Part shown: in pieces, positions 2,751-9,703 of the stretch
Layout: every line of letters starts with the position of its first letter
Position numbering within the stretch: position 1 is the stretch's first letter
NCBI GenBank assembly: GCA_037481775.1
Contig: JBBFKZ010000013.1
Location: 36,764 to 49,583 of the forward strand
Direction of reading: 5' to 3'
DNA from: Candidatus Bathyarchaeia archaeon
Lineage (GTDB): Archaea; Thermoproteota; Bathyarchaeia; Bathyarchaeales; Bathycorpusculaceae
DNA length: 12,820 nt
The notes under the pieces: generated by a model
What the model saw: the letters and a program-made list of their open reading frames with translations, nothing else
Told to the model about the DNA's origin: nothing
Databases searched by the model: none
Made by a program: the position numbers and the translations under genes

Positions 2751-3548
2751 TCACTTTCGCTCGATCAACTTTATTTCAAAGAGTTTTGACCATAATTTTC
2801 CGGTCACGAAAATCCTGTCCGCCTCTTGGTCATAGGCAATTCCATTAAGCACGCTGTTTGGGTTCTGATTTGCTTGCGGGTAAATCCCTGCTAAGTCAAT
2901 CCAGCCTTTGACTTGGCCTGTCTCAGGGTTGATGATGGCGATTCTATCTTCGCCCCACACGTTAGCGTAAACGTCTCCTTTGACAAACTCCAGTTCATTA
3001 AGTCTTGTCACCGATGTGTTTCCGTCATGAACCTCAACTTGGCCAATCTTCTGGAAGGTTTCAGGATCCAAAAAGTACAGGTTTGCTGTTCCATCGCTCA
3101 TTATTAGCTTCTTGCCATCATGCGTAATACCCCAGCCCTCAGTTGGATAACTAAAGTTCCGTATTAACGCAAATGTCTGCTTGTCATACACGAAGCCTAC
3201 ATGGTTCTGCCAGGTCAGCTGGATAATTTTGCCGTTGAAAATTGTGATGCCTTCACCGAAAAATTCGCTGGGCAAACTATGCATCTGCAGGACTGTGCCT
3301 GTTTCCAAGTTTACCCTACGCAATGAAGAGTAACCCCATAACCCCGTGCCTTCGTAAAGCACACCCTGATCGATGACTAACCCCTGGGTGAACGCGTTTG
3401 GATCATGTGGATAAACCTTCACAACTTCATAAGTGTAGGCCAACGGTGCGCGGCTCGCGGGTGCCCCCGTAAGCGTGAGAAATGCGCCAGTGCCCAGCGC
3501 AAGTGCGGCTACAATCAAGAGAATGGCAGCTAAATTTTGCTTTTTCAT
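2751..3548 (-). CDS. Glutaminyl-peptide cyclotransferase (plant/bacterial-type QC, beta-propeller), exported or membrane-anchored
   Basis: Motifs YPHDPNAFTQGL, LYEGTG, FFGEGIT, QLTW, EGWGIT, MSDGT, LNELE, YANVW, VLNGIAYD, VTGKLW. N-terminus MKKQ followed by a hydrophobic stretch. Confidence 0.93.
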   Translation of the reverse strand: MKKQNLAAILLIVAALALGTGAFLTLTGAPASRAPLAYTYEVVKVYPHDPNAFTQGLVIDQGVLYEGTGLWGYSSLRRVNLETGTVLQMHSLPSEFFGEGITIFNGKIIQLTWQNHVGFVYDKQTFALIRNFSYPTEGWGITHDGKKLIMSDGTANLYFLDPETFQKIGQVEVHDGNTSVTRLNELEFVKGDVYANVWGEDRIAIINPETGQVKGWIDLAGIYPQANQNPNSVLNGIAYDQEADRIFVTGKLWSKLFEIKLIERK

Positions 3549-3616
3549 GTCCCTTTTCCAGTTATTCTTTCTACTTAGGTCACTTATGCCTTTCCCTTTC
3601 GTTTTGCTGCAGTTTT

Positions 3617-3631
3617 GAATAAATTTATATC
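3617..3631 (+). promoter_or_regulatory. Putative BRE/TATA (GAATAAA-TTTATAT) for the desulforedoxin-like gene
   Basis: TTTATAT at 3624-3630 preceded by a purine-rich stretch, ~55 nt upstream of TTG 3684. Confidence 0.5.
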
Positions 3632-3683
3632 TAAAAAGCGCAGAAAATATAGTGTTGCTAGCGCATGTGGATGGTGCTATTTT

Positions 3684-3863
3684 TTGGCGAAAAAAGGTGA
3701 AAAATACAAGTGCGAAGAATGCGGCCTAATCGTGTTGGTTGAGGATCCCTGCGGGTGTGAGCCAGTTGAGATAATCTGCTGCGGTGCGCCTATGAAACCC
3801 GTTAAGGAAACTGCTAAGGCGAAGGCTAAACCTAAAGCTGAATCAAAAGCTAAGAAGCAATAA
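3684..3863 (+). CDS. Small desulforedoxin-like (CxxC...CC) metal-binding protein, 59 aa, with Lys/Ala-rich tail
   Basis: Start re-placed at TTG 3684 (SD-like GGATGGTG 3669-3676): MAKKGEKYKCEECGLIVLVEDPCGCEPVEIICCGAPMKPVKETAKAKAKPKAESKAKKQ. YKCxxCG..V.V...CCG.PM matches the desulforedoxin/desulfoferrodoxin N-terminal pattern. Confidence 0.75.
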   Translation: MAKKGEKYKCEECGLIVLVEDPCGCEPVEIICCGAPMKPVKETAKAKAKPKAESKAKKQ

Positions 3864-3876
3864 GCGTAGCTGCTAT

Positions 3877-3897
3877 CCTCTCCTTTTTCTCTTTTAA
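3877..3897 (+). terminator. Pyrimidine/oligo-T terminator
   Basis: CCTCTCCTTTTTCTCTTTTAA shortly after the stop codon; same C-rich, T-run, AA form as after 8374 and 12423. Confidence 0.5.
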
Positions 3898-4006
3898 TTA
3901 CCGCGAATTACAAATGCCTTTTTCAACTGTGCTTATTTGGCGTCTGTATTGTAAATAAATAAAACTTATTACATCTCTGCGACTGTAAAGTGTATCGGGT
4001 GCACTT

Positions 4007-4222
4007 TTGAAAATAATAAAAGAAGAGCGGAAACGCAGCAAAGCGCTTATACTTCTGCTTCTTCCCGCTATCGTTTTCATCTGGATGATCGGATGGAGCC
4101 TATACTGGATCGGTCACCAGAAAGAGCGTCAGAAGGCAAAGCCTATTGAGGCTCGAGAGCCGGATTATGTTCACTTAATGCCCATGGCGATTGAAGAACC
4201 TTTGGAAGCCCGAAGCGAATAA
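4007..4222 (+). CDS. Small single-pass membrane protein, hypothetical
   Basis: TTG start with SD-like GGGTG (3997-4001); basic N-terminus, hydrophobic Trp-rich segment LILLLLPAIVFIWMIGWSLYWIG, charged tail. Confidence 0.6.
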   Translation: MKIIKEERKRSKALILLLLPAIVFIWMIGWSLYWIGHQKERQKAKPIEAREPDYVHLMPMAIEEPLEARSE

Positions 4223-4351
4223 GAGCACCGTGCTGCGTAAGTGCTAAACGAAAATGAGTAAAGTACGATGATAGTTATTTTTTCCACTGTTGTGTCATAT
4301 AACGAAAGGTGCCAGGCGGGCACTGCTGTTTTTCAAATTGCGCTTATGCTT

Positions 4352-4753
4352 TTAGAAGAATCTGCGCTTCTTTTTTTCCTGGTTCCCGGGGCTTTCAGCT
4401 AAGACGCTGCCTGTTGCCACTGTCATGGTGACGGCACCTGCAGTTTCAAGCTGCTCTGCTTCTTCCTCAGCGGCAGGCGCTTCTGCTGGTTGCGGCTGTT
4501 GCAGCTTTGCTTCGAGCTCTTTCTTTTTGGCTTCCATTTGGTCTATGGCTTCTTTGAGTGCTCTGTTGCGGTTTTTCAATTCTTCAACTATTGCCTTCTC
4601 TCTTTTTAGCTCTTCAAAGGCTATTTTTTCTTCAAGCGTCTTTAGCGTGTTCTCCAATTCTTTCTGTTTTTCTTGGAGGACGCGAGTTTCTGCCTCAAGT
4701 TCCATTCGCATAGAGCGCAGTTGTTCAAGTTCCTGTTTTATGCTCATCGCCAT
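4352..4753 (-). CDS. Coiled-coil hypothetical protein
   Basis: E/K/L-rich heptad pattern over ~85 aa, then a Pro/Ala/Glu linker and C-terminal KKKRRFF. Start at 4753 or 4747. Confidence 0.7.
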   Translation of the reverse strand: MAMSIKQELEQLRSMRMELEAETRVLQEKQKELENTLKTLEEKIAFEELKREKAIVEELKNRNRALKEAIDQMEAKKKELEAKLQQPQPAEAPAAEEEAEQLETAGAVTMTVATGSVLAESPGNQEKKKRRFF

Positions 4754-4925
4754 CCAGTTTACAACATTGATAAATTAGAAAAATAGTTTTGTGAAAAACC
4801 AATCCATACTCCAAATCAGAATTGGAACACATTGGGAAGCGGAGTGCGCTTGCGTAATCTCCCAGCGCTTGCTGAAAGTTATTAAGGAACCCGTTGCATT
4901 CTAAATGGAGTCGAGTGGATAATTG

Positions 4926-5276
4926 TTGAGCTTTAAGAGACATATGCATCCGAAAGTCAGCAACGCCGAAATAGAGCTGTTCAAGGCGCTGAGTGCGGCG
5001 GGTCTAACCAATGGCATGGTAACCCAGAAGCCAATCGTGCTGAAAGCCACTGTTCCTGATTTTTGCTGGCTTGACAAGCGGAAAGCCGTCTACCTGGACG
5101 GTTTGCAAGCGCACTCTGGCGATAAGCAGCAGGAGCGCGACGAGGAGGTCCGCGTGCTGCTTGAGGAAAAAGGCTGGGATGTGCTTCGCATACCATACAA
5201 GCCGCCTTTAAGCGGGAAAGAACTGCAAAGAATAGTTGCGCTGATCCGAGATTTCCTAGGAACAAGTGACGAGTAA
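4926..5276 (+). CDS. DUF559/Vsr-like endonuclease domain protein
   Basis: S.AE..LF..L, then PDFCW...AVYLDG...H......RD.....L...GWDVLRI, the layout of DUF559/Vsr-type nucleases. Start uncertain (TTG 4923/4926 or ATG 4944). Confidence 0.68.
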   Translation: MSFKRHMHPKVSNAEIELFKALSAAGLTNGMVTQKPIVLKATVPDFCWLDKRKAVYLDGLQAHSGDKQQERDEEVRVLLEEKGWDVLRIPYKPPLSGKELQRIVALIRDFLGTSDE

Positions 5277-5353
5277 AGCTTTTTTCCGCGTTTAAATGTA
5301 CCCTGATTTTTGTAGGCGTAGCCATGAGTTTTAGAGTAATGCTCACGTTTAAG

Positions 5354-5396
5354 TTTGAAACGCTTGTTTCATCGTGTTCCTTAACTATACTTTTGC
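5354..5396 (+). promoter_or_regulatory. Conserved upstream element, copy A (contains palindrome GAAAC-GCTT-GTTTC, 5357-5370)
   Basis: TTTGAAACGCTTGTTTCATCGTGTTCCTTAA-CTATACTTTTGC aligns with 7487-7530 at 34/44 columns; ends 23 nt before ATG 5420. Confidence 0.65.
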
Positions 5397-5419
5397 TACT
5401 TATTAGTTTGTGATGTAGA

Positions 5420-6463
5420 ATGCTGCTCAAAAGCCGACTTACCGCTTTGCTAATAATCGCGCTACTTGTTATTACAGTGCTTCCTGCGTCTGCTATGCTT
5501 TATGGTCAAGCCTCCGTTCAGGCGGCTCCTGCGGAAGAGATGATTAAACTAGCTGATCGCGCGGCGCAGCAAGTTAAAAATCTAATAGATCTTGTGCAAG
5601 TTAATGAGACTGCTCTCCAAGCGATCGAAAGCGTAGGTCTTGATGCTGCGTTGGAAGGCAATGTTTCTCTCTACAATGAAGGCGCTAGAAAGCTGTCTGC
5701 TGCTCATGACGCGCTTGCAATGGTTGATTACGAGGCTGCTGTTGATTACGCAACTGAGTCTCTGCGCATTTTCAGAGAAGTTTTCCAATCAATACATGTG
5801 ATCCTTGAGAAAGCAGAGCTCCAGAAGGGGCAGATGGTTGACAATCAAGGATTACTAGAGGCTATAACACGAGAGATACAAAGAATAGACTGTCTGCGGG
5901 AAGTTCTGCTTGAAGATGTGCCTGAAGAAATTGAACAGTGGCTTGATAATGCCAAATCTCTTCTAGACATGGATGCTGCCAGAGCGCTGCTTTTAGAGGG
6001 TAATGCTGCAGAGGTTATTTCCCGTTTACAGAGCGCAAAAGAGATGCTTTCACAAGTTTACGCTTACTTGAAGGCAAAGGCCAAGGAATCTACTGCTTGG
6101 CGTATCTATAATTATTGCCAAAGAATTCGCGAAAGAATTAGTGAAGAATTTAGGCGAGGAAACCAAACGGGCGTCGACTTCACCGGTGTTCTCGAATCTT
6201 TGGGTTACCAAAACGAAAACCAGTTCATGGAAGCCTTGGAGGGTCGAATTCAAGTGGTCCAAAACAAAACAGATGATTTTCAGAGTGTGAGGCGTGCTTT
6301 GGAGGAGCTTGGGCAAATGGTTCAAGAAATGGATCAAGCGCTTACACAGGAAATGAAAAGGTGTCAAGGTGGTTCTGGTTCAGGCGGCGTCGGCAGCAAC
6401 TCGGGTTCAAGCAACGGCGGCATGGTTGACGGCTACGGGCAAGGTAATGGCGGTAAGCCATAA
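5420..6463 (+). CDS. Secreted all-alpha-helical protein of unknown function with Gly/Ser/Asn-rich C-terminal tail
   Basis: Signal peptide MLLKSRLTALLIIALLVITVLPASA; amphipathic helical A/E/L/Q-rich body; GGSGSGGVGSNSGSSNGG tail; SD-like GTGAT at 5410-5414. Confidence 0.82.
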   Translation: MLLKSRLTALLIIALLVITVLPASAMLYGQASVQAAPAEEMIKLADRAAQQVKNLIDLVQVNETALQAIESVGLDAALEGNVSLYNEGARKLSAAHDALAMVDYEAAVDYATESLRIFREVFQSIHVILEKAELQKGQMVDNQGLLEAITREIQRIDCLREVLLEDVPEEIEQWLDNAKSLLDMDAARALLLEGNAAEVISRLQSAKEMLSQVYAYLKAKAKESTAWRIYNYCQRIRERISEEFRRGNQTGVDFTGVLESLGYQNENQFMEALEGRIQVVQNKTDDFQSVRRALEELGQMVQEMDQALTQEMKRCQGGSGSGGVGSNSGSSNGGMVDGYGQGNGGKP

Positions 6464-6503
6464 AAAGCATGTTTATAAGCAGAATTTTCCTGTTTTTTCT
6501 TGG

Positions 6504-7385
6504 CTATTTGAGTTCTACCTGGTTCTCAAGCCCGATCTTTTTTACTTCAACTATCTCTAGCCTTTCCAGTCTTCTAACCAGTCTCCAAAGGCTTGTTCGT
6601 GGCATATCTGAGAATCTTTCTCTTATCTCTGCCTCAAAGGCCTTGCCACCTTTTTCCGCTAGAAACTTTATCACTTCTTTATCTTCCTGTTTTAACTGAG
6701 GGTTGGATTTCAGTATTTTCTTAATGTTAGGCCCTCTTCTTCGCTTAACGATCAGTAATGCTGACAGAAGAGCCGCGGCTGCCGCGAATATGATTGCTGT
6801 TAAATATTCTGTTGGAATTGTAGCTTGGGTGGCGCTGTTGCCTTCGCTTTCTTCCTCATGCTGTATTGGTAGCACGTAGCTTATCTCCCATTTGCTGGGC
6901 TGTAATGATAGGACTATACAAGTGCCTGTTGTGTCTATTGCGGTTGGTACATCACTTAGATAAATCACTGTTGCGTTCTGAGGTAGAGAGACTTTCACGT
7001 TATATGGTGCATCGGCAACGAGGGTCCACACTTCCGCTTCTTTCTTTGTAAGTGCAAGTGTTTCATATTCAACCGAAACATGCTTTGCGCCTAAGGTGAA
7101 GATGGTTATTTTGTCGCCATTCAGCTCATAGTCCACTGGCATCTGATTTTCATCAAGCACCATTACATTCTCAATAGACGAGGATAGAAGCGACAGCGTT
7201 ATTTCAGGAGATAACTCGTTTGCGGCTAAAGTTTGTGTGACATGAACCAAGCCATCTCTATATATCGTAAGGTTTGTGGCTTCAACTTCGAACAGCGCTT
7301 GTCCTGCAGCTGTTGCAAACATGCTTATGGGTAGCAATAGCATGAGTAAGGTTGCGAGGATGAGCTGTTTGCTGCAGAGTTCCAT
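6504..7385 (-). CDS. Membrane-spanning one-component regulator: signal peptide, extracellular beta-rich domain, TM, cytoplasmic winged HTH (COG2512-like)
   Basis: Start more likely ATG 7385 (MELCSKQLILATLLMLLLP...). TM YLTAIIFAAAAALLSALLIV followed by KRRR. C-terminal LKQEDKEVIKFLAEKGGKAFEAEIRERFSDMPRTSLWRLVRRLERLEIVEVKKIGLENQVELK has a wHTH pattern. Confidence 0.82.
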   Translation of the reverse strand: MELCSKQLILATLLMLLLPISMFATAAGQALFEVEATNLTIYRDGLVHVTQTLAANELSPEITLSLLSSSIENVMVLDENQMPVDYELNGDKITIFTLGAKHVSVEYETLALTKKEAEVWTLVADAPYNVKVSLPQNATVIYLSDVPTAIDTTGTCIVLSLQPSKWEISYVLPIQHEEESEGNSATQATIPTEYLTAIIFAAAAALLSALLIVKRRRGPNIKKILKSNPQLKQEDKEVIKFLAEKGGKAFEAEIRERFSDMPRTSLWRLVRRLERLEIVEVKKIGLENQVELK

Positions 7386-7450
7386 TTTTCCCCGCGTTAA
7401 TTTAGTCTTTCTTAAGATTATATTTTTTGTGTATCCGCTATACAGGTACA

Positions 7451-7482
7451 TTTAGTTTGGACAAGCGTGGAACAAGTATTCC
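7451..7482 (-). promoter_or_regulatory. Conserved upstream element, degenerate copy C, oriented toward the regulator gene
   Basis: Minus strand GGAATACTTGTTCCACGCTTGTCCAAACTAAA: 15/24 identity to copy A (5357-5380), followed by AAACTAAA as in copy B; contains near-palindrome GGAAC-AAGT-ATTCC (7469-7482). Confidence 0.5.
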
Positions 7483-7486
7483 TACT

Positions 7487-7530
7487 TTTGGAACGCTTTT
7501 CTCGCAGTGTCCCTTAAACTAAACTTTAGC
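7487..7530 (+). promoter_or_regulatory. Conserved upstream element, copy B
   Basis: TTTGGAACGCTTTTCTCGCAGTGTCCCTTAAACTAAACTTTAGC; ends 25 nt before GTG 7556; SD GGTGAT at 7545-7550. Confidence 0.65.
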
Positions 7531-7555
7531 ATTTACTTTTATCCGGTGATTCAGT

Positions 7556-8374
7556 GTGAAAAACCCAAATTTCGCAAGAAACTCCGCCAAACTTGGCGCT
7601 TCCATCGTTGCCTTGCTGATGATACTGCTAACTTTCGTGCCATCGAGCTTAGCAGCTGGTAGCGTTGCGCATTCATCTGCGGCTGGAGGACCTGGATTTC
7701 CTGGAGTTTCCAACAATGCTGTGACATGTAACCGAACTGATTTAACGCCTGTGGCTCAAATGGAGCAGGTTAGGGCTGGTGAGCCTACATTATTCTGCTA
7801 TAGAAACACCACTATGCTGATGAATTGCACAAGAAACTGTAGCTTAGTTGTTACGGTGGATCCCGCAGTGAAGCCTAAGCTTTTCGGCTTTTCAATTGAC
7901 GCAAACCAGACCATGACTCTGACGATGAACGTAAGTGGCTCGCCGCTTGAAGGTGCCCGCGTCATGGAGCGAACCCTCAACTTCTACTTGGGACTTGAAC
8001 CCAACGCTACGTTGCAATTGCGCGTCCAGATACGTCTTTACATTAATCAAACCGAGCTTAATCAGGAGCTTAACAGAGAAGTCAACGTTTCAAGGCTTAC
8101 GTGGATGTATTGGAACAGGACACGCGCCGAATGGGAAGCAGTGCCAAGCTACGTGGACCAGGACGGATACCTAGTCTGCAACACAAACCACCTCTCCACT
8201 TGGACTGTTGCTGAGGTGGAAGCGGCGACAGAGAGCATCAGTGAAACAGACGCTGCAGACGTCATGGCAACAGGGAAAAATGGCATAGACGCGACCTACA
8301 TTTACGCTGGAGCAGCAGTAGCAATAATAATTCTTGCAATAGGCTTATATGCGCTTGCAAAGCACAAAAGATAA
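7556..8374 (+). CDS. Membrane-anchored surface protein (probable glycoprotein) with GPS/GAIN-like HLS motif
   Basis: GTG start with GGTGAT SD; signal peptide; ten N-x-S/T sequons; WMYWN...EWE...LVCNTNHLSTWTVA; acidic linker; C-terminal TM plus KHKR. Confidence 0.82.
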   Translation: MKNPNFARNSAKLGASIVALLMILLTFVPSSLAAGSVAHSSAAGGPGFPGVSNNAVTCNRTDLTPVAQMEQVRAGEPTLFCYRNTTMLMNCTRNCSLVVTVDPAVKPKLFGFSIDANQTMTLTMNVSGSPLEGARVMERTLNFYLGLEPNATLQLRVQIRLYINQTELNQELNREVNVSRLTWMYWNRTRAEWEAVPSYVDQDGYLVCNTNHLSTWTVAEVEAATESISETDAADVMATGKNGIDATYIYAGAAVAIIILAIGLYALAKHKR

Positions 8375-8400: not shown

Positions 8401-8464
8401 CTGTTTTCAGATTGTATTTATCTATTTACGGTGGGAATTGCTTTTAAATGTGGCAGCATTAATT

Positions 8465-9703
8465 ATGGGATTGGAGGAAAGCTATTTGGATGAAGATAAA
8501 AAAGCGCAAATAAGGGAAGCATTGCGTCAGTTGCATGCTGGGGTTCCTTCTGAGCAAGTTAAAGAGAGGTTCAAGCAGGTTTTGGAGAATACCAGTTCTA
8601 TAGAAATTGCCAAAATAGAGGGGGATCTTATCAAAGAGGGTGTGAAGCGTGAGGAACTGCGGAAGCTTTGCGATGTGCACTTAGCCATTTTTAAAGAACA
8701 ATTAGAGAGGCAGGCCTCTGATTTGACTCCAACGCAGCCGATACGCATATTGATGGAAGAGCATAGGATAATGCTGCAAAAGGCAGAACAGCTTTCATCC
8801 ATCGCCAATAAACTGGCGAAAGTAAGCGAAATGCGCTATGTTGCCGACGACATCCACACAGTTACGCATATAGCAGAAGATTTTGTTGATTCAGAAAAGC
8901 ATTATTTGCGGGAAGAAAATGTGCTCTTTCCCGTTATCGAGAAGCACGGCATAACTGAGCCTCCGGCTATAATGTGGATGGAGCATGATCAAATAAGGGG
9001 CTATAAAAAGAAGCTTCGCCAACTCGTACAAGACTTGAGCGAAATTAGTTTTGAAGATTTTAAAACGCAATTGCATGATACGGCCAGCTTATTGCATAAT
9101 CAGTTGTCAAGCCATTTCTACAAAGAAAATAACATTTTGTTCCCGGCAGCTCTGTCGGTGATCACGGATCAAGAGTGGCTGGAGATTCGAAGGGAGTTCG
9201 ATGAGATCGGATATTGTTGTTTCACGCCTGTCGAACTAACTGCTTCGCCTATGCTCCAGACCGAAGCTGCCAATGTAAGCGCTAGGTCAGAAGGGATTTT
9301 GCAATTCGAAACTGGCAGCCTCACAAAGGAGGAACTTGATGGACTGCTGAATACGCTTCCAGTCGATGTTACCTTTGTAGATGCTAATGATGCTGTTAAA
9401 TACTTCAGTAAACCTGACAAACGCATCTTTGTGCGTACAAAGGCTGTGATCGGCAGAAAAGTGCAGTTGTGCCATCCCGAAAAGAGTGTTCATGTAGTAA
9501 ACAGGATTCTGAATGCCTTCAAAACTGGGAAAAAGGATCACGCTGAATTCTGGATAAACCTAAACAACCGCCTGATACACATACGCTACTTTGCTGTGCG
9601 AGACAGCCGTGGGAAATATTTGGGCACGCTTGAAGTATCTCAAGATGTAACTGACATCAAAAAACTCGAAGGCGAGAGGCGCCTTCTGGACTGGAATGAA
9701 TAA
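8465..9703 (+). CDS. DUF438 - hemerythrin-like - PAS domain protein
   Basis: DUF438-type N-terminus (LHAG...VKERF...EIAKIE..LIKEG......LCDVH); hemerythrin-like ligand motifs MEEH, KHYLREENVLFP, MWMEHD, HFYKENNILFP; C-terminal PAS (LNTLPVDVTFVD...RIFVRTKAVIGRKVQLCHP...YLGTLEVSQD). ATG 8465 preferred over TTG 8438; TATA-like TTTTAAAT at 8442-8449. Confidence 0.9.
   Translation: MGLEESYLDEDKKAQIREALRQLHAGVPSEQVKERFKQVLENTSSIEIAKIEGDLIKEGVKREELRKLCDVHLAIFKEQLERQASDLTPTQPIRILMEEHRIMLQKAEQLSSIANKLAKVSEMRYVADDIHTVTHIAEDFVDSEKHYLREENVLFPVIEKHGITEPPAIMWMEHDQIRGYKKKLRQLVQDLSEISFEDFKTQLHDTASLLHNQLSSHFYKENNILFPAALSVITDQEWLEIRREFDEIGYCCFTPVELTASPMLQTEAANVSARSEGILQFETGSLTKEELDGLLNTLPVDVTFVDANDAVKYFSKPDKRIFVRTKAVIGRKVQLCHPEKSVHVVNRILNAFKTGKKDHAEFWINLNNRLIHIRYFAVRDSRGKYLGTLEVSQDVTDIKKLEGERRLLDWNE

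Follow-up and report, generated by a model that had tools for sequence, protein, structure and literature searches.

A conserved Bathyarchaeia gene cluster with a shared operator/promoter element, a putative membrane-tethered regulator and its predicted extracellular partner

Introduction

Which factor reads a promoter element that precedes two genes for exported proteins, and could it be the putative membrane-bound regulator encoded between them? Bathyarchaeia are abundant in sediments and, to our knowledge, essentially uncultivated, with no transcription factor of theirs having a known operator. The question is raised by a stretch of 12,820 nt of Candidatus Bathyarchaeia archaeon (GCA_037481775.1, contig JBBFKZ010000013.1, positions 36,764 to 49,583, forward strand; hereafter the window), in which genes A, R and C lie side by side (Table 1). 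An initial annotation had described a ~44-bp element ahead of A and C and proposed a self-contained regulon in which R controls both exported proteins. The comparison set consisted of 75 related Bathyarchaeia loci, all fetched through R homologues. Our main reading, held with a probability of roughly 0.6, is that of a conserved Bathyarchaeia cluster around a membrane-tethered one-component regulator R, with R and A forming a co-component sensor and R likely activating the exported-protein genes via the dyads of the element.

Results and discussion

The shared element in the window

Local alignment of the upstream regions 5277-5419 and 7452-7555 gave a score of 38, compared with 16.1 ± 2.4 for shuffled sequences, none of 2000 reaching 38. 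The annotated match was thereby reproduced, its first 44 columns (5354-5396 versus 7487-7530) holding 34 identities and one gap and stopping 23 nt before ATG 5420 and 25 nt before GTG 7556. The remaining 44 pairs among the upstream regions of the window's ten genes scored at most 19. A degenerate pattern, which was derived from both copies themselves and is hence not an independent test, matched the window only at 5357-5384 and 7490-7517 (expectation 0.00, 200 shuffles). A weight matrix of 72 sites, from other genomes only, matched only 7467-7518 (63.4 bits) and 5334-5385 (29.5 bits), the next best position scoring -4.9; the latter, the window's own A site, is weak compared with orthologous A sites, which mostly reach 50-70 bits.

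The element extends ~20 bp further upstream than the first 44-bp match, to a second dyad at 7469-7482 (dyad 1 in Table 1). It covers ~50 bp, comprising two 14-bp dyads of the form GRAAC-N4-GTTYC with centres 21 bp apart, followed by an almost invariant AGTGTCCCTTAA box, whose CCC lies mostly 42-45 nt before the start codon. The centre of dyad 2 is 21 bp upstream of a weak TATA-like TTAA, which the GC-rich AGTGTCCC precedes. The Shine-Dalgarno-like GTGAT of gene A, presumably complementary to the 16S rRNA 3' end, is conserved as (G)GTGAT in many orthologous upstream regions.

Table 1. Coordinates of genes and promoter features in the window
Feature	Position	Strand	Remarks
Dyad 1 position, A promoter	5336..5349	+	Degenerate in this genome; register from weight matrix
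Dyad 2, A promoter	5357..5370	+	GAAAC-GCTT-GTTTC, perfect palindrome; from sequence, pattern match and symmetry statistics
Box, A promoter	5373..5384	+	CGTGTTCCTTAA, variant of the consensus AGTGTCCCTTAA; at the expected BRE/TATA position
Shine-Dalgarno-like GTGAT, gene A	5410..5414	+	5 nt before ATG 5420
Gene A	5420..6463	+	347 aa; start ATG 5420
Gene R	6504..7385	-	293 aa; between A and C
R's own promoter	7416..7432	-	ACACAAAAAATATAATC: A-rich BRE and TATA, 31-47 nt before ATG 7385
Dyad 1, C promoter	7469..7482	+	GGAAC-AAGT-ATTCC
Dyad 2, C promoter	7490..7503	+	GGAAC-GCTT-TTCTC
Box, C promoter	7506..7517	+	AGTGTCCCTTAA, exact consensus match; read as GC-rich BRE-position element plus weak TATA (TTAA)
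Shine-Dalgarno-like GGTGAT, gene C	7545..7550	+	5 nt before GTG 7556
Gene C	7556..8374	+	272 aa; GTG start (ATG in orthologues)

Conservation of the cluster and its element

The neighbourhood proved to be conserved: by tblastn, 61 of the 75 R loci have an A homologue and 35 have one of C, one of the latter a fragment only. Of the 60 A genes whose start could be called, 59 are convergent with R and directly downstream of it (median gap 32 nt), and C is divergent from R in 30 of its 35 genes. R is the sole DNA-binding protein found in the conserved cluster.

The element recurs at orthologous loci, where nearly every A or C orthologue has it upstream, even for A proteins sharing only 31-45% identity. 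At least one site was present in 62 of 75 loci; the other 13 had none nearby in the DNA examined, and for about 8 of these neither a short contig nor distant relationship offers an explanation. Scanning 1,235,168 positions with a 73-site matrix (background mean -93, sd 17.5) gave 114 matches above 15 bits, of which 100 scored at least 40 bits; shuffled loci gave 0 matches, with a maximum of -0.8. Cross-validation yielded medians of 51.3 bits for C sites under a matrix from A sites only, and 45.5 bits for A sites under a matrix from C sites only. The exact 11-mer GTGTCCCTTAA occurs 81 times in 56 of the 75 loci, a count independent of site anchoring, from which the invariance of the box in the matrix partly arises. 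Among the 100 strong sites, mirrored positions were complementary at the two dyad registers in a mean of 2.92 and 3.38 of 5 cases, compared with mostly 0.1-1.8 of 5 at other offsets.

All 91 sites of the 55 loci with full flanks fell at 2919-6834, where R starts at 4001, a closeness to R that is partly by construction, the loci having been fetched through R. The outer 4-kb flanks of these loci held no site, the element being absent from the other genes there. Of the 114 sites, 53 precede A and 27 precede C. The remaining 34 comprise 8 C genes with mis-called starts, 2 A genes that are broken, 10 P1 and 11 P2 peptide genes, a single reverse-strand echo and 2 weak matches without an ORF. P1 and P2 are two families of small secreted-peptide genes that the element also precedes in some genomes; P1 peptides carry GPAPNSGDGIPDGSGF twice, and P2 peptides are Asp/Gln/Cys-rich. 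The proposed regulon is thus self-contained only in part, the peptide genes of relatives sharing its element.

The original match was short, as might be expected of chance similarity or of the remnant of a repeat or mobile element. That explanation is refuted by the shuffled alignments, the conservation across genomes, with orientation and distance to the start codon fixed in most of the 75, and the empty shuffled-locus scans, and Rfam and tRNA scans were likewise empty; its probability is practically nil. The element is a conserved cis-regulatory module common to both exported-protein genes and confined to the cluster within the fetched loci.

Architecture of the regulator

R contains hydrophobic segments at residues 2-32 and 192-216, the latter followed by KRRRGPN, the basic residues of which fit a cytoplasmic C-terminus. 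A structure model of moderate confidence (pLDDT 69.9) assigns residues 32-171 to a beta-rich region, 194-215 to a helix and 233-292 to a winged helix. R is accordingly predicted to consist of a signal peptide, a beta-sandwich ectodomain (about 30-175), a transmembrane (TM) helix (192-216) and a cytoplasmic DUF7343 winged helix (233-292), in agreement with the annotated outside-TM-inside topology with a C-terminal wHTH. The start at 7385 was adopted because most homologues have 291-296 residues; a start at 7451 was rejected for its poor fit to that length.

The isolated C-terminal 78 residues of R match DUF7343 with 28.3 bits (E 1.6e-6), above the Pfam gathering cut-off of 27.6, whereas full-length R reaches 24.5 bits, below it. 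All 21 aligned R homologues match the family at E up to 0.01 (best E 1.7e-5), and the winged helix is nearly invariant across the R family. In 144 of the 150 best representative clusters DUF7343 sits no more than 20 residues from the C-terminus, and a hydrophobic 19-mer occurs at most 50 aa before it in 84 of 108 proteins of at least 200 aa; judged from sequence, the architecture of R is thus a recurrent one among the closest relatives of its DUF7343 domain. With a predicted DNA-binding domain and at least one predicted transmembrane region, R falls under the definition of transmembrane transcription regulators (TTR) given in the pertinent passages of Demey et al. 2023 (PMC10269533).

The exported proteins and the predicted A-R complex

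Protein C has a signal-like segment (9-38), ten N-x-S/T sequons and a C-terminal TM anchor (243-271), and family searches matched it to no known family. Protein A begins with a hydrophobic signal-like segment, closes with a G/S/N-rich tail whose last residues are GGKP, matched nothing in Pfam, NCBIfam or PDB sequences, and appears to be secreted without a membrane anchor. The annotated lack of visible similarity between the two is borne out by hhalign (probability 3.5%), only their signal peptides being common to both.

A complex model of R 28-192 with A 36-316 reached an ipSAE of 0.85 in each of three runs, with the best control at 0.00; in the benchmark, 116 of 157 solved complexes and 2 of 215 mismatched pairs attained this value. 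The runs shared at least 87% of their contacts, the partner's pLDDT was at least 89, and recall of a known complex is unlikely because a sequence search found no solved relative of R or A. Secreted A is therefore predicted to bind the ectodomain of R, which qualifies the annotated view of the exported proteins as targets, A being not only a target but also a candidate binding partner. Predicted interface positions are more conserved than positions elsewhere in R (0.90 versus 0.79, p 2.5e-4) and in A (0.70 versus 0.63, p 0.012), a conservation that could also stem from fold constraints.

Promoter geometry and mode of regulation

R's promoter and other promoters in the window carry an A-rich BRE and TATA that are as far from the start codon as the box is. 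Of the 27 R upstream regions in which a TATA-like 8-mer was found, 18 have it starting 37-41 nt ahead of the ATG, and the box has its TTAA 38-42 nt ahead of the start codons. The dyads stop 7 nt short of the GC-rich box, which occupies the place where other promoters have BRE/TATA, and in the C promoter the centre of dyad 1 is ~55 bp upstream of R's divergent TATA. R's own promoter lacks the shared box.

This geometry fits an archaeal activator-dependent promoter of the EarA type. In the relevant passage of PMC13286277, EarA, the archaellum activator of Euryarchaeota, is a winged-helix protein bound just upstream of a weak-BRE promoter and thought to help recruit TFB, and mutations in the BRE remove the need for it. 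By analogy, the same way of working may apply to R at the GC-rich box, with a different binding site; the PMC13286277 passage does not describe EarA as membrane-bound.

In the main reading, R would be a type-I membrane protein whose N-terminal beta-sandwich ectodomain faces outward and is joined by a single TM helix to the winged helix inside, where the latter, most likely as dimers, would bind the two GRAAC-N4-GTTYC dyads. Since the dyads lie directly upstream of a non-canonical core promoter, R is most likely an activator at the A and C promoters, probably helping to recruit TBP/TFB as described for EarA. The putative targets, A, C and, in relatives, the two small secreted-peptide families, would all be exported, and R with A may constitute a two-protein extracytoplasmic sensor comparable to ToxR/ToxS or VtrA/VtrC. 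As A is both target and predicted partner, the circuit would contain feedback. We infer the binding of R to DNA, activation over repression, the signal sensed and the physiological role, for which the initial annotation had suggested that the cluster may serve envelope stress or surface remodelling.

The strongest conservation falls in a non-palindromic box at the BRE/TATA position, which a basal factor could read, and the element may conceivably be real and recognised by another factor, namely a soluble regulator encoded elsewhere or a TFB/TBP paralogue recognising AGTGTCCCTTAA. R and A would then be a surface complex merely co-located and co-expressed with its neighbours, the winged helix having another role; the predicted A-R binding alone would explain the gene linkage, and the 13 R loci lacking the element and the lack of a copy in R's own promoter point the same way. 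This is a tentative possibility to be taken seriously, set against the presence of R as the only DNA-binding protein found in the cluster, the suitability of palindromic dyads for a dimeric winged helix, and the pairing of a winged helix and a half-site that are both nearly invariant despite the divergence of A.

Many archaeal regulators bound at or downstream of TATA repress transcription. R may correspondingly bind the dyads as a repressor relieved by the signal, with the T-rich spacer between the dyads (73-98% T at positions -25 to -22) serving as the TATA that they flank, and the AGTGTCCCTTAA box lying at the transcription start or in the 5' leader. We regard this as rather unlikely, given that, set against the other promoters of the window, the spacer makes a poor TATA, and that the TTAA of the box lies near the distance of R's TATA-like 8-mer. 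With the TTAA as TATA, moreover, the Shine-Dalgarno-like GGTGAT falls within a leader that is only ~11-14 nt long, like those of neighbouring genes.

The single TM helix and the short basic linker after it would also permit R to act after regulated proteolysis, a signal or the loss of A leading to cleavage near the helix and release of the winged helix. Regulated cleavage is reported for ToxR (PMC6242745) and for anti-sigma factors (PMC4183432), and a Lon-like protease gene lies 3.6 kb away and is syntenic in close relatives. Across the 75 loci no protease gene is kept inside the cluster, Lon matches being confined to 9 of the first 10 loci, and passages of PMC10269533 report that tethered regulators function from the membrane in prokaryotes, so that we consider release by cleavage improbable.

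The cluster might also form a closed circuit for extracellular feedback or for signalling between cells of an uncultivated archaeal class, in which R and A, as a surface receptor, would sense the level of their own secreted products (A, and P1/P2 in relatives) and set transcription of the exported set directly from the membrane. We regard it as doubtful and speculative; if true, it would represent archaeal peptide autoinduction, resembling quorum sensing, on an inverted ToxR-type scaffold.

Comparison with known systems

In ToxR the HTH is N-terminal, the opposite order to R. The ToxR/CadC sequence of HTH, TM helix and C-terminal periplasmic sensor is not found in R, and the claim of a reversed topology relative to CadC and ArnR is supported by the passages of PMC9214523 and PMC13286277.

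R resembles ToxR/ToxS and VtrA/VtrC (PMC9214523, PMC8359183, PMC10624426) as a single-pass membrane protein with a cytoplasmic DNA-binding domain, in a separately encoded neighbouring extracytoplasmic partner whose binding to the sensor domain is here only predicted by modelling, and in its presumed control of exported-factor genes. R differs from those systems in being inverted, with the ectodomain N-terminal and the winged helix C-terminal, and in its DNA-binding domain, which is DUF7343 where theirs is OmpR-type; the isolated domain gave no Trans_reg_C (OmpR-type) match even at E up to 10. A is convergent with R and has its own promoter, whereas their partner lies directly downstream in the same orientation and often overlaps. 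A also looks helical rather than lipocalin-like as VtrC/ToxS are, going by a helix-like periodicity of conservation at the predicted interface. Unlike the bacterial co-component partners, A is apparently secreted without a membrane anchor, and the host is archaeal, hence the TBP/TFB-type promoter. PMC9214523 contains no mention of archaea (0 occurrences).

CadC (PMC9214523, PMC5430869) is likewise a membrane-embedded transcription factor with an extracytoplasmic sensor joined to a cytoplasmic DNA-binding domain by one TM helix, and activates its target by recruiting polymerase, as R may do; compared with it, R has its parts in the opposite order, and its ectodomain fold is unrelated. In the passage of PMC13286277 citing Bischof et al. 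2019, ArnR/ArnR1 of Sulfolobus acidocaldarius are archaeal membrane-bound transcription factors for surface-structure genes with an N-terminal HTH, compared with the C-terminal winged helix of R. The DUF7343 family, whose model the C-terminal 60 residues of R match, has no described function, operator or partner; a full-text search found no paper naming the domain, and the literature searches gave none on the shared motif, in keeping with the earlier statement that no characterised operator is known for this regulator family.

Conclusion

The locus supplies a defined, deeply conserved operator/promoter of ~50 bp, built from two dyads and, where a BRE would be, an unusual GC-rich box, together with a candidate regulator whose winged helix is small enough for EMSA and crystallography, and a predicted extracellular partner, A. 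The element is a practical marker for co-regulated secreted and surface proteins of these archaea. Should R prove to bind the dyads, the DUF7343 family would, as far as the literature was searched, have its first assigned operator. The arrangement of R raises the question of how a signal passes from a type-I membrane protein to a C-terminal DNA-binding domain. The locus looks like a new kind of archaeal surface-sensing switch and, if the main reading is true, would give the bacterial co-component transmembrane regulators a counterpart in archaea, built in the opposite orientation.

Shared promoter element

The upstream regions of A and C, the two exported-protein genes flanking the candidate membrane winged-helix regulator gene R, aligned locally with a score of 38, a value reached by 0 of 2000 shuffles (16.1 ± 2.4), and no other pairing of upstream regions from the window (44 pairs) scored above 19. 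The 44-column match described in the initial annotation was recovered with its 34 identities and stops 23 nt short of the A start codon and 25 nt short of that of C; its extent required revision, as these 44 bp take in the second dyad of the element, the GC-rich box and some downstream bases and overlook dyad 1.

The motif is present upstream of nearly all A and C orthologues, reading T-GAAAC-aAGC-GTTTC-a, about 6 mostly T-rich bases, TT-GAAAC-GCTT-GTTTC, two bases and AGTGTCCCTTAA; of the 70 strong sites before A and C, 52 have the CCC 42-45 nt upstream of the start codon, and GGTGAT is located 5-7 nt upstream of the start. The two 14-bp dyads are separated by 21 bp centre to centre, and the centre of dyad 2 lies 21 bp before the TTAA region. 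In the 100 strong sites, complementary bases occupy on average 2.92 and 3.38 of the 5 mirrored positions at the two dyad registers, and 0.1-1.8 of 5 at most other offsets; a secondary symmetry peak corresponds to the opposite pairing of adjacent half-sites. The most frequent half-sites (n = 400) were GAAAC (135), GGAAC (58), GGAAT (40) and GAAAT (40). Within the window, the A promoter has a degenerate dyad 1 and a box with two mismatches; with a matrix derived from 72 sites in other genomes, the A site scored 29.5 bits compared with 63.4 bits for the C site, and nothing in the rest of the window scored above -4.9. A known RNA was ruled out as the identity of the element, Rfam (gathering thresholds) and ARAGORN both returning empty results on the window.

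Specificity and targets of the element

A 73-site matrix produced 114 matches above 15 bits across the 75 related loci and the window, with 100 reaching at least 40 bits, against a background with a mean of -93 and a standard deviation of 17.5; shuffled loci gave zero matches, with a maximum of -0.8. The training sites were anchored on the box, so part of the box's invariance in the matrix stems from the procedure. Independent of this anchoring, 56 of the 75 loci together contain 81 exact copies of the 11-mer GTGTCCCTTAA, with about 0.3 occurrences expected by arithmetic, and matrices made from A sites only or C sites only detect the sites of the other gene set, at median scores of 51.3 and 45.5 bits (30.4 and 26.6 bits for the dyad part alone). 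At least one site is found in 62 of the 75 loci. Complete 4-kb flanks are available for 55 loci, and all 91 sites in these fall within positions 2919-6834, R starting at 4001, a restriction established on loci that were all found through R. The element is absent from the syntenic neighbours, comprising the DUF559 gene, a coiled-coil gene, glutamine cyclotransferase, Lon, a PQQ propeller and the hemerythrin/PAS gene.

A lies behind 53 of the 114 matches and C behind 27. The remaining 34 comprise 8 C genes with a mis-set start, 2 broken A genes, 10 genes of one kind of small secreted peptide (P1; 71-87 aa, signal peptide plus two GPAPNSGDGIPDGSGF repeats), 11 of a second kind (P2; 66-141 aa, signal peptide followed by repeats rich in Asp/Gln/Arg and in Cys), a single reverse-strand echo and 2 weak matches without an ORF. 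P1 and P2 lack a Pfam match, and the window contains neither. The targets thus all look exported. The element is very probably genuine, a promoter/operator module with deep conservation that serves a small regulon of exported proteins. The Asp/Gln/Arg-rich repeats of P2 bear Cys pairs, and these peptides might be metal-binding or redox-active.

Coordinates of features in the window and in related loci fetched via R homologues (prefix L; locus-internal positions)
Feature	Location	Strand	Remarks
DUF559 gene (Vsr-like endonuclease fold)	4923-5276	+	Immediately 5' of the A promoter; position kept in 13 of the closest loci (L001-L011, L041, L042)
A	5420-6463	+	
A tail	6364-6460		Low-complexity
R	6504-7385	-	
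Dyad 1 before C	7469-7482		
C	7556-8374	+	
DUF438/hemerythrin/PAS_10 gene	8438-9703	+	Directly after C, without the shared element; true start probably ATG 8467, not TTG 8438; counterpart only in two close relatives (L005 complete, L001 short fragment)
P1 gene	L016:6083-6322	-	Element before it, as before the two below and 7 more
P1 gene	L043:6092-6334	-	
P1 gene	L032:6302-6562	-	
P2 gene	L012:3585-3824	-	Element before it, as before the two below and 8 more
P2 gene	L038:6322-6744	-	
P2 gene	L019:6108-6320	+	
Dyad part only (25 bits)	L049:5350-5401	+	No box after it; downstream of a long R; locus without A
Inverted repeat of long-R clade (example)	L058:3925-3965		

Gene neighbourhood of R

The 75 loci were retrieved from species-level genomes via alignment of R homologues and are nearly all from Bathyarchaeia; the close homologues of R that carry names are all Bathyarchaeota/Bathyarchaeia or labelled Crenarchaeota. 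The genes of the window, including a diphthamide synthase fragment, a LonB-like protease and a glutamine cyclotransferase, are archaeal. Conservation of the neighbourhood, suggested in the initial annotation as a check on the proposed regulon, was borne out by tblastn, which located a homologue of A in 61 of the 75 loci and of C in 35, one of the latter being a fragment only. Of the 60 loci with a callable A start, 59 have A immediately downstream of R in convergent orientation (median gap 32 nt), and C is divergent from R in 30 of its 35 loci.

A single genome can hold two copies of the cluster, with L018 and L043 belonging to one MAG and L014 and L059 to another; A and C appear broken in L043. 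L014 carries a short R and L059 a long R, both with the element before A, and paralogous receptors may therefore converge on a single operator type.

Architecture of R

R contains hydrophobic segments at residues 2-32 and 192-216, the second followed by KRRRGPN, and its start was placed at 7385 because its homologues are mostly 291-296 residues long. The structural model (pLDDT 69.9) comprises a beta-rich region (32-171), a helix (194-215) and a winged helix (233-292). The isolated C-terminal domain is identified as DUF7343, with 28.3 bits against a Pfam cut-off of 27.6, and 21 of 21 aligned R homologues match DUF7343 at E up to 0.01. None of A, R and C has a significant NCBIfam match, and sequence searches of the PDB with profiles of the three proteins and with the isolated winged helix returned nothing below E 0.03.

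A search of 1.84 billion representatives with the 78-residue winged helix returned 454 clusters at E up to 0.001. Within the best 150 of these 454, it lies at most 20 residues from the C-terminus in 144; the 108 proteins of at least 200 aa among those 150 include 84 with a hydrophobic 19-mer within 50 aa before the winged helix and 68 with an N-terminal hydrophobic segment. A predicted out-TM-in order thus recurs across these closest relatives, with ectodomains of varying length.

R is longer in 27 of the 76 loci (window included), and the two long forms translated have an extra beta-rich domain before the TM helix. Long-R loci show GGAAC/GGAAT half-sites more commonly and KRLE instead of RRLE; this covariation was given no weight as evidence, since long versus short R is a single split on the tree. 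The modelled R ectodomain is similar in shape to the beta domain at the N-terminus of M1 aminopeptidases/LTA4H (E 5e-5, query-normalised TM 0.31-0.33) and gave an rmsd of 14-15 Å against Ost1/ribophorin I, predicted resemblances that serve as shape leads only, with no function drawn from them.

Predicted A-R complex and the fold of C

A was chosen for complex modelling with R on account of the tightest linkage in the cluster and of its signal peptide without an anchor. With R 28-192 and A 36-316 as input, the A tail being left out, all three runs gave an ipSAE of 0.85 (best control 0.00), with at least 87% contact agreement and partner pLDDT of at least 89. A score of 0.85 was attained by 116 of 157 solved complexes versus 2 of 215 mismatched pairs, counts that apply only approximately because the modelling drew on our own alignments. 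The model supports binding of A to the R ectodomain. Interface positions are more conserved than the remaining positions in both proteins, and sequence searches found no solved relatives of either.

A and C, described in the initial annotation as lacking visible similarity, indeed show no relationship beyond their signal peptides (hhalign probability 3.5%), and Pfam gave no match for either. Names attached to A in the Atlas and other sources (TPR, FliS, YgcG and others) were disregarded as mutually inconsistent. A orthologues mostly carry a Gly/Ser/Asn-rich tail, many ending in GG[KN]P or GGNGP, which could be a sorting or processing signal. The model of C was poor (pLDDT 62.5), and its Foldseek search against the PDB gave no match with E below 0.1. 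In the Atlas, C retrieved only Bathyarchaeota hypotheticals plus one Promethearchaeota structural lead, the Atlas model of C reaching TM 0.54 to a cluster of 423-aa proteins with HTH_24, HTH_HVO_0163_N and HTH_5. This modelled likeness suggests that other archaeal proteins join a C-like beta domain to an HTH.

Core promoter and direction of regulation

Other promoters in the window have an A-rich stretch and a TATA-like box, that of R being ACACAAAAAATATAATC. Of the 60 R upstream regions examined, 27 contain a TATA-like pattern, which starts 37-41 nt before the ATG in 18 of the 27. In the shared box, TTAA stands 38-42 nt upstream of the A and C starts, which places the GC-rich AGTGTCCC at the BRE position of a weak TATA. 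The dyads, as candidate regulator site, thus stand directly upstream of a poor BRE/TATA, resembling the arrangement of the activator EarA, for which an excerpt of PMC13286277 describes a site directly upstream of a poor BRE/TATA and BRE mutations that bypass the activator. By this analogy, activation is the more likely direction of regulation; a repressor model, in which the T-rich spacer between the dyads would itself be the TATA, is less likely.

A conserved inverted repeat particular to the long-R clade (L045-L071), TTAATAAGATTC ... GATTCAGAATTCTTATTA, lies about 35-75 nt upstream of the R start and is unlike the short-R promoter ATACAyAAgAATTATAATT. This repeat may be a separate operator controlling R itself.

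Relation to known regulators

Literature searches found nothing naming DUF7343, nothing relevant under COG2512, only unrelated contexts for the motif strings, including a primer table, and, for Bathyarchaeota regulators, nothing on this system among the matches listed. ToxR carries its HTH at the N-terminus. Excerpts of PMC9214523 and PMC13286277 place the HTH at the N-terminus in CadC and in ArnR/ArnR1, respectively, in contrast to the C-terminal winged helix of R. An excerpt of PMC10269533 reports a census that counted 1,384 transmembrane regulators in archaea, spread over 367 of 404 species, so the general kind is already known.

The best-supported reading, with a probability of roughly 0.6, is that R is the protein binding the element and works with A as co-sensor. 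If the predicted A-R binding holds, the pair would be like the bacterial co-component regulators ToxR/ToxS and VtrA/VtrC, as presented in PMC9214523, a paper that makes no mention of archaea; R and A differ from them in orientation, DNA-binding domain and gene arrangement.
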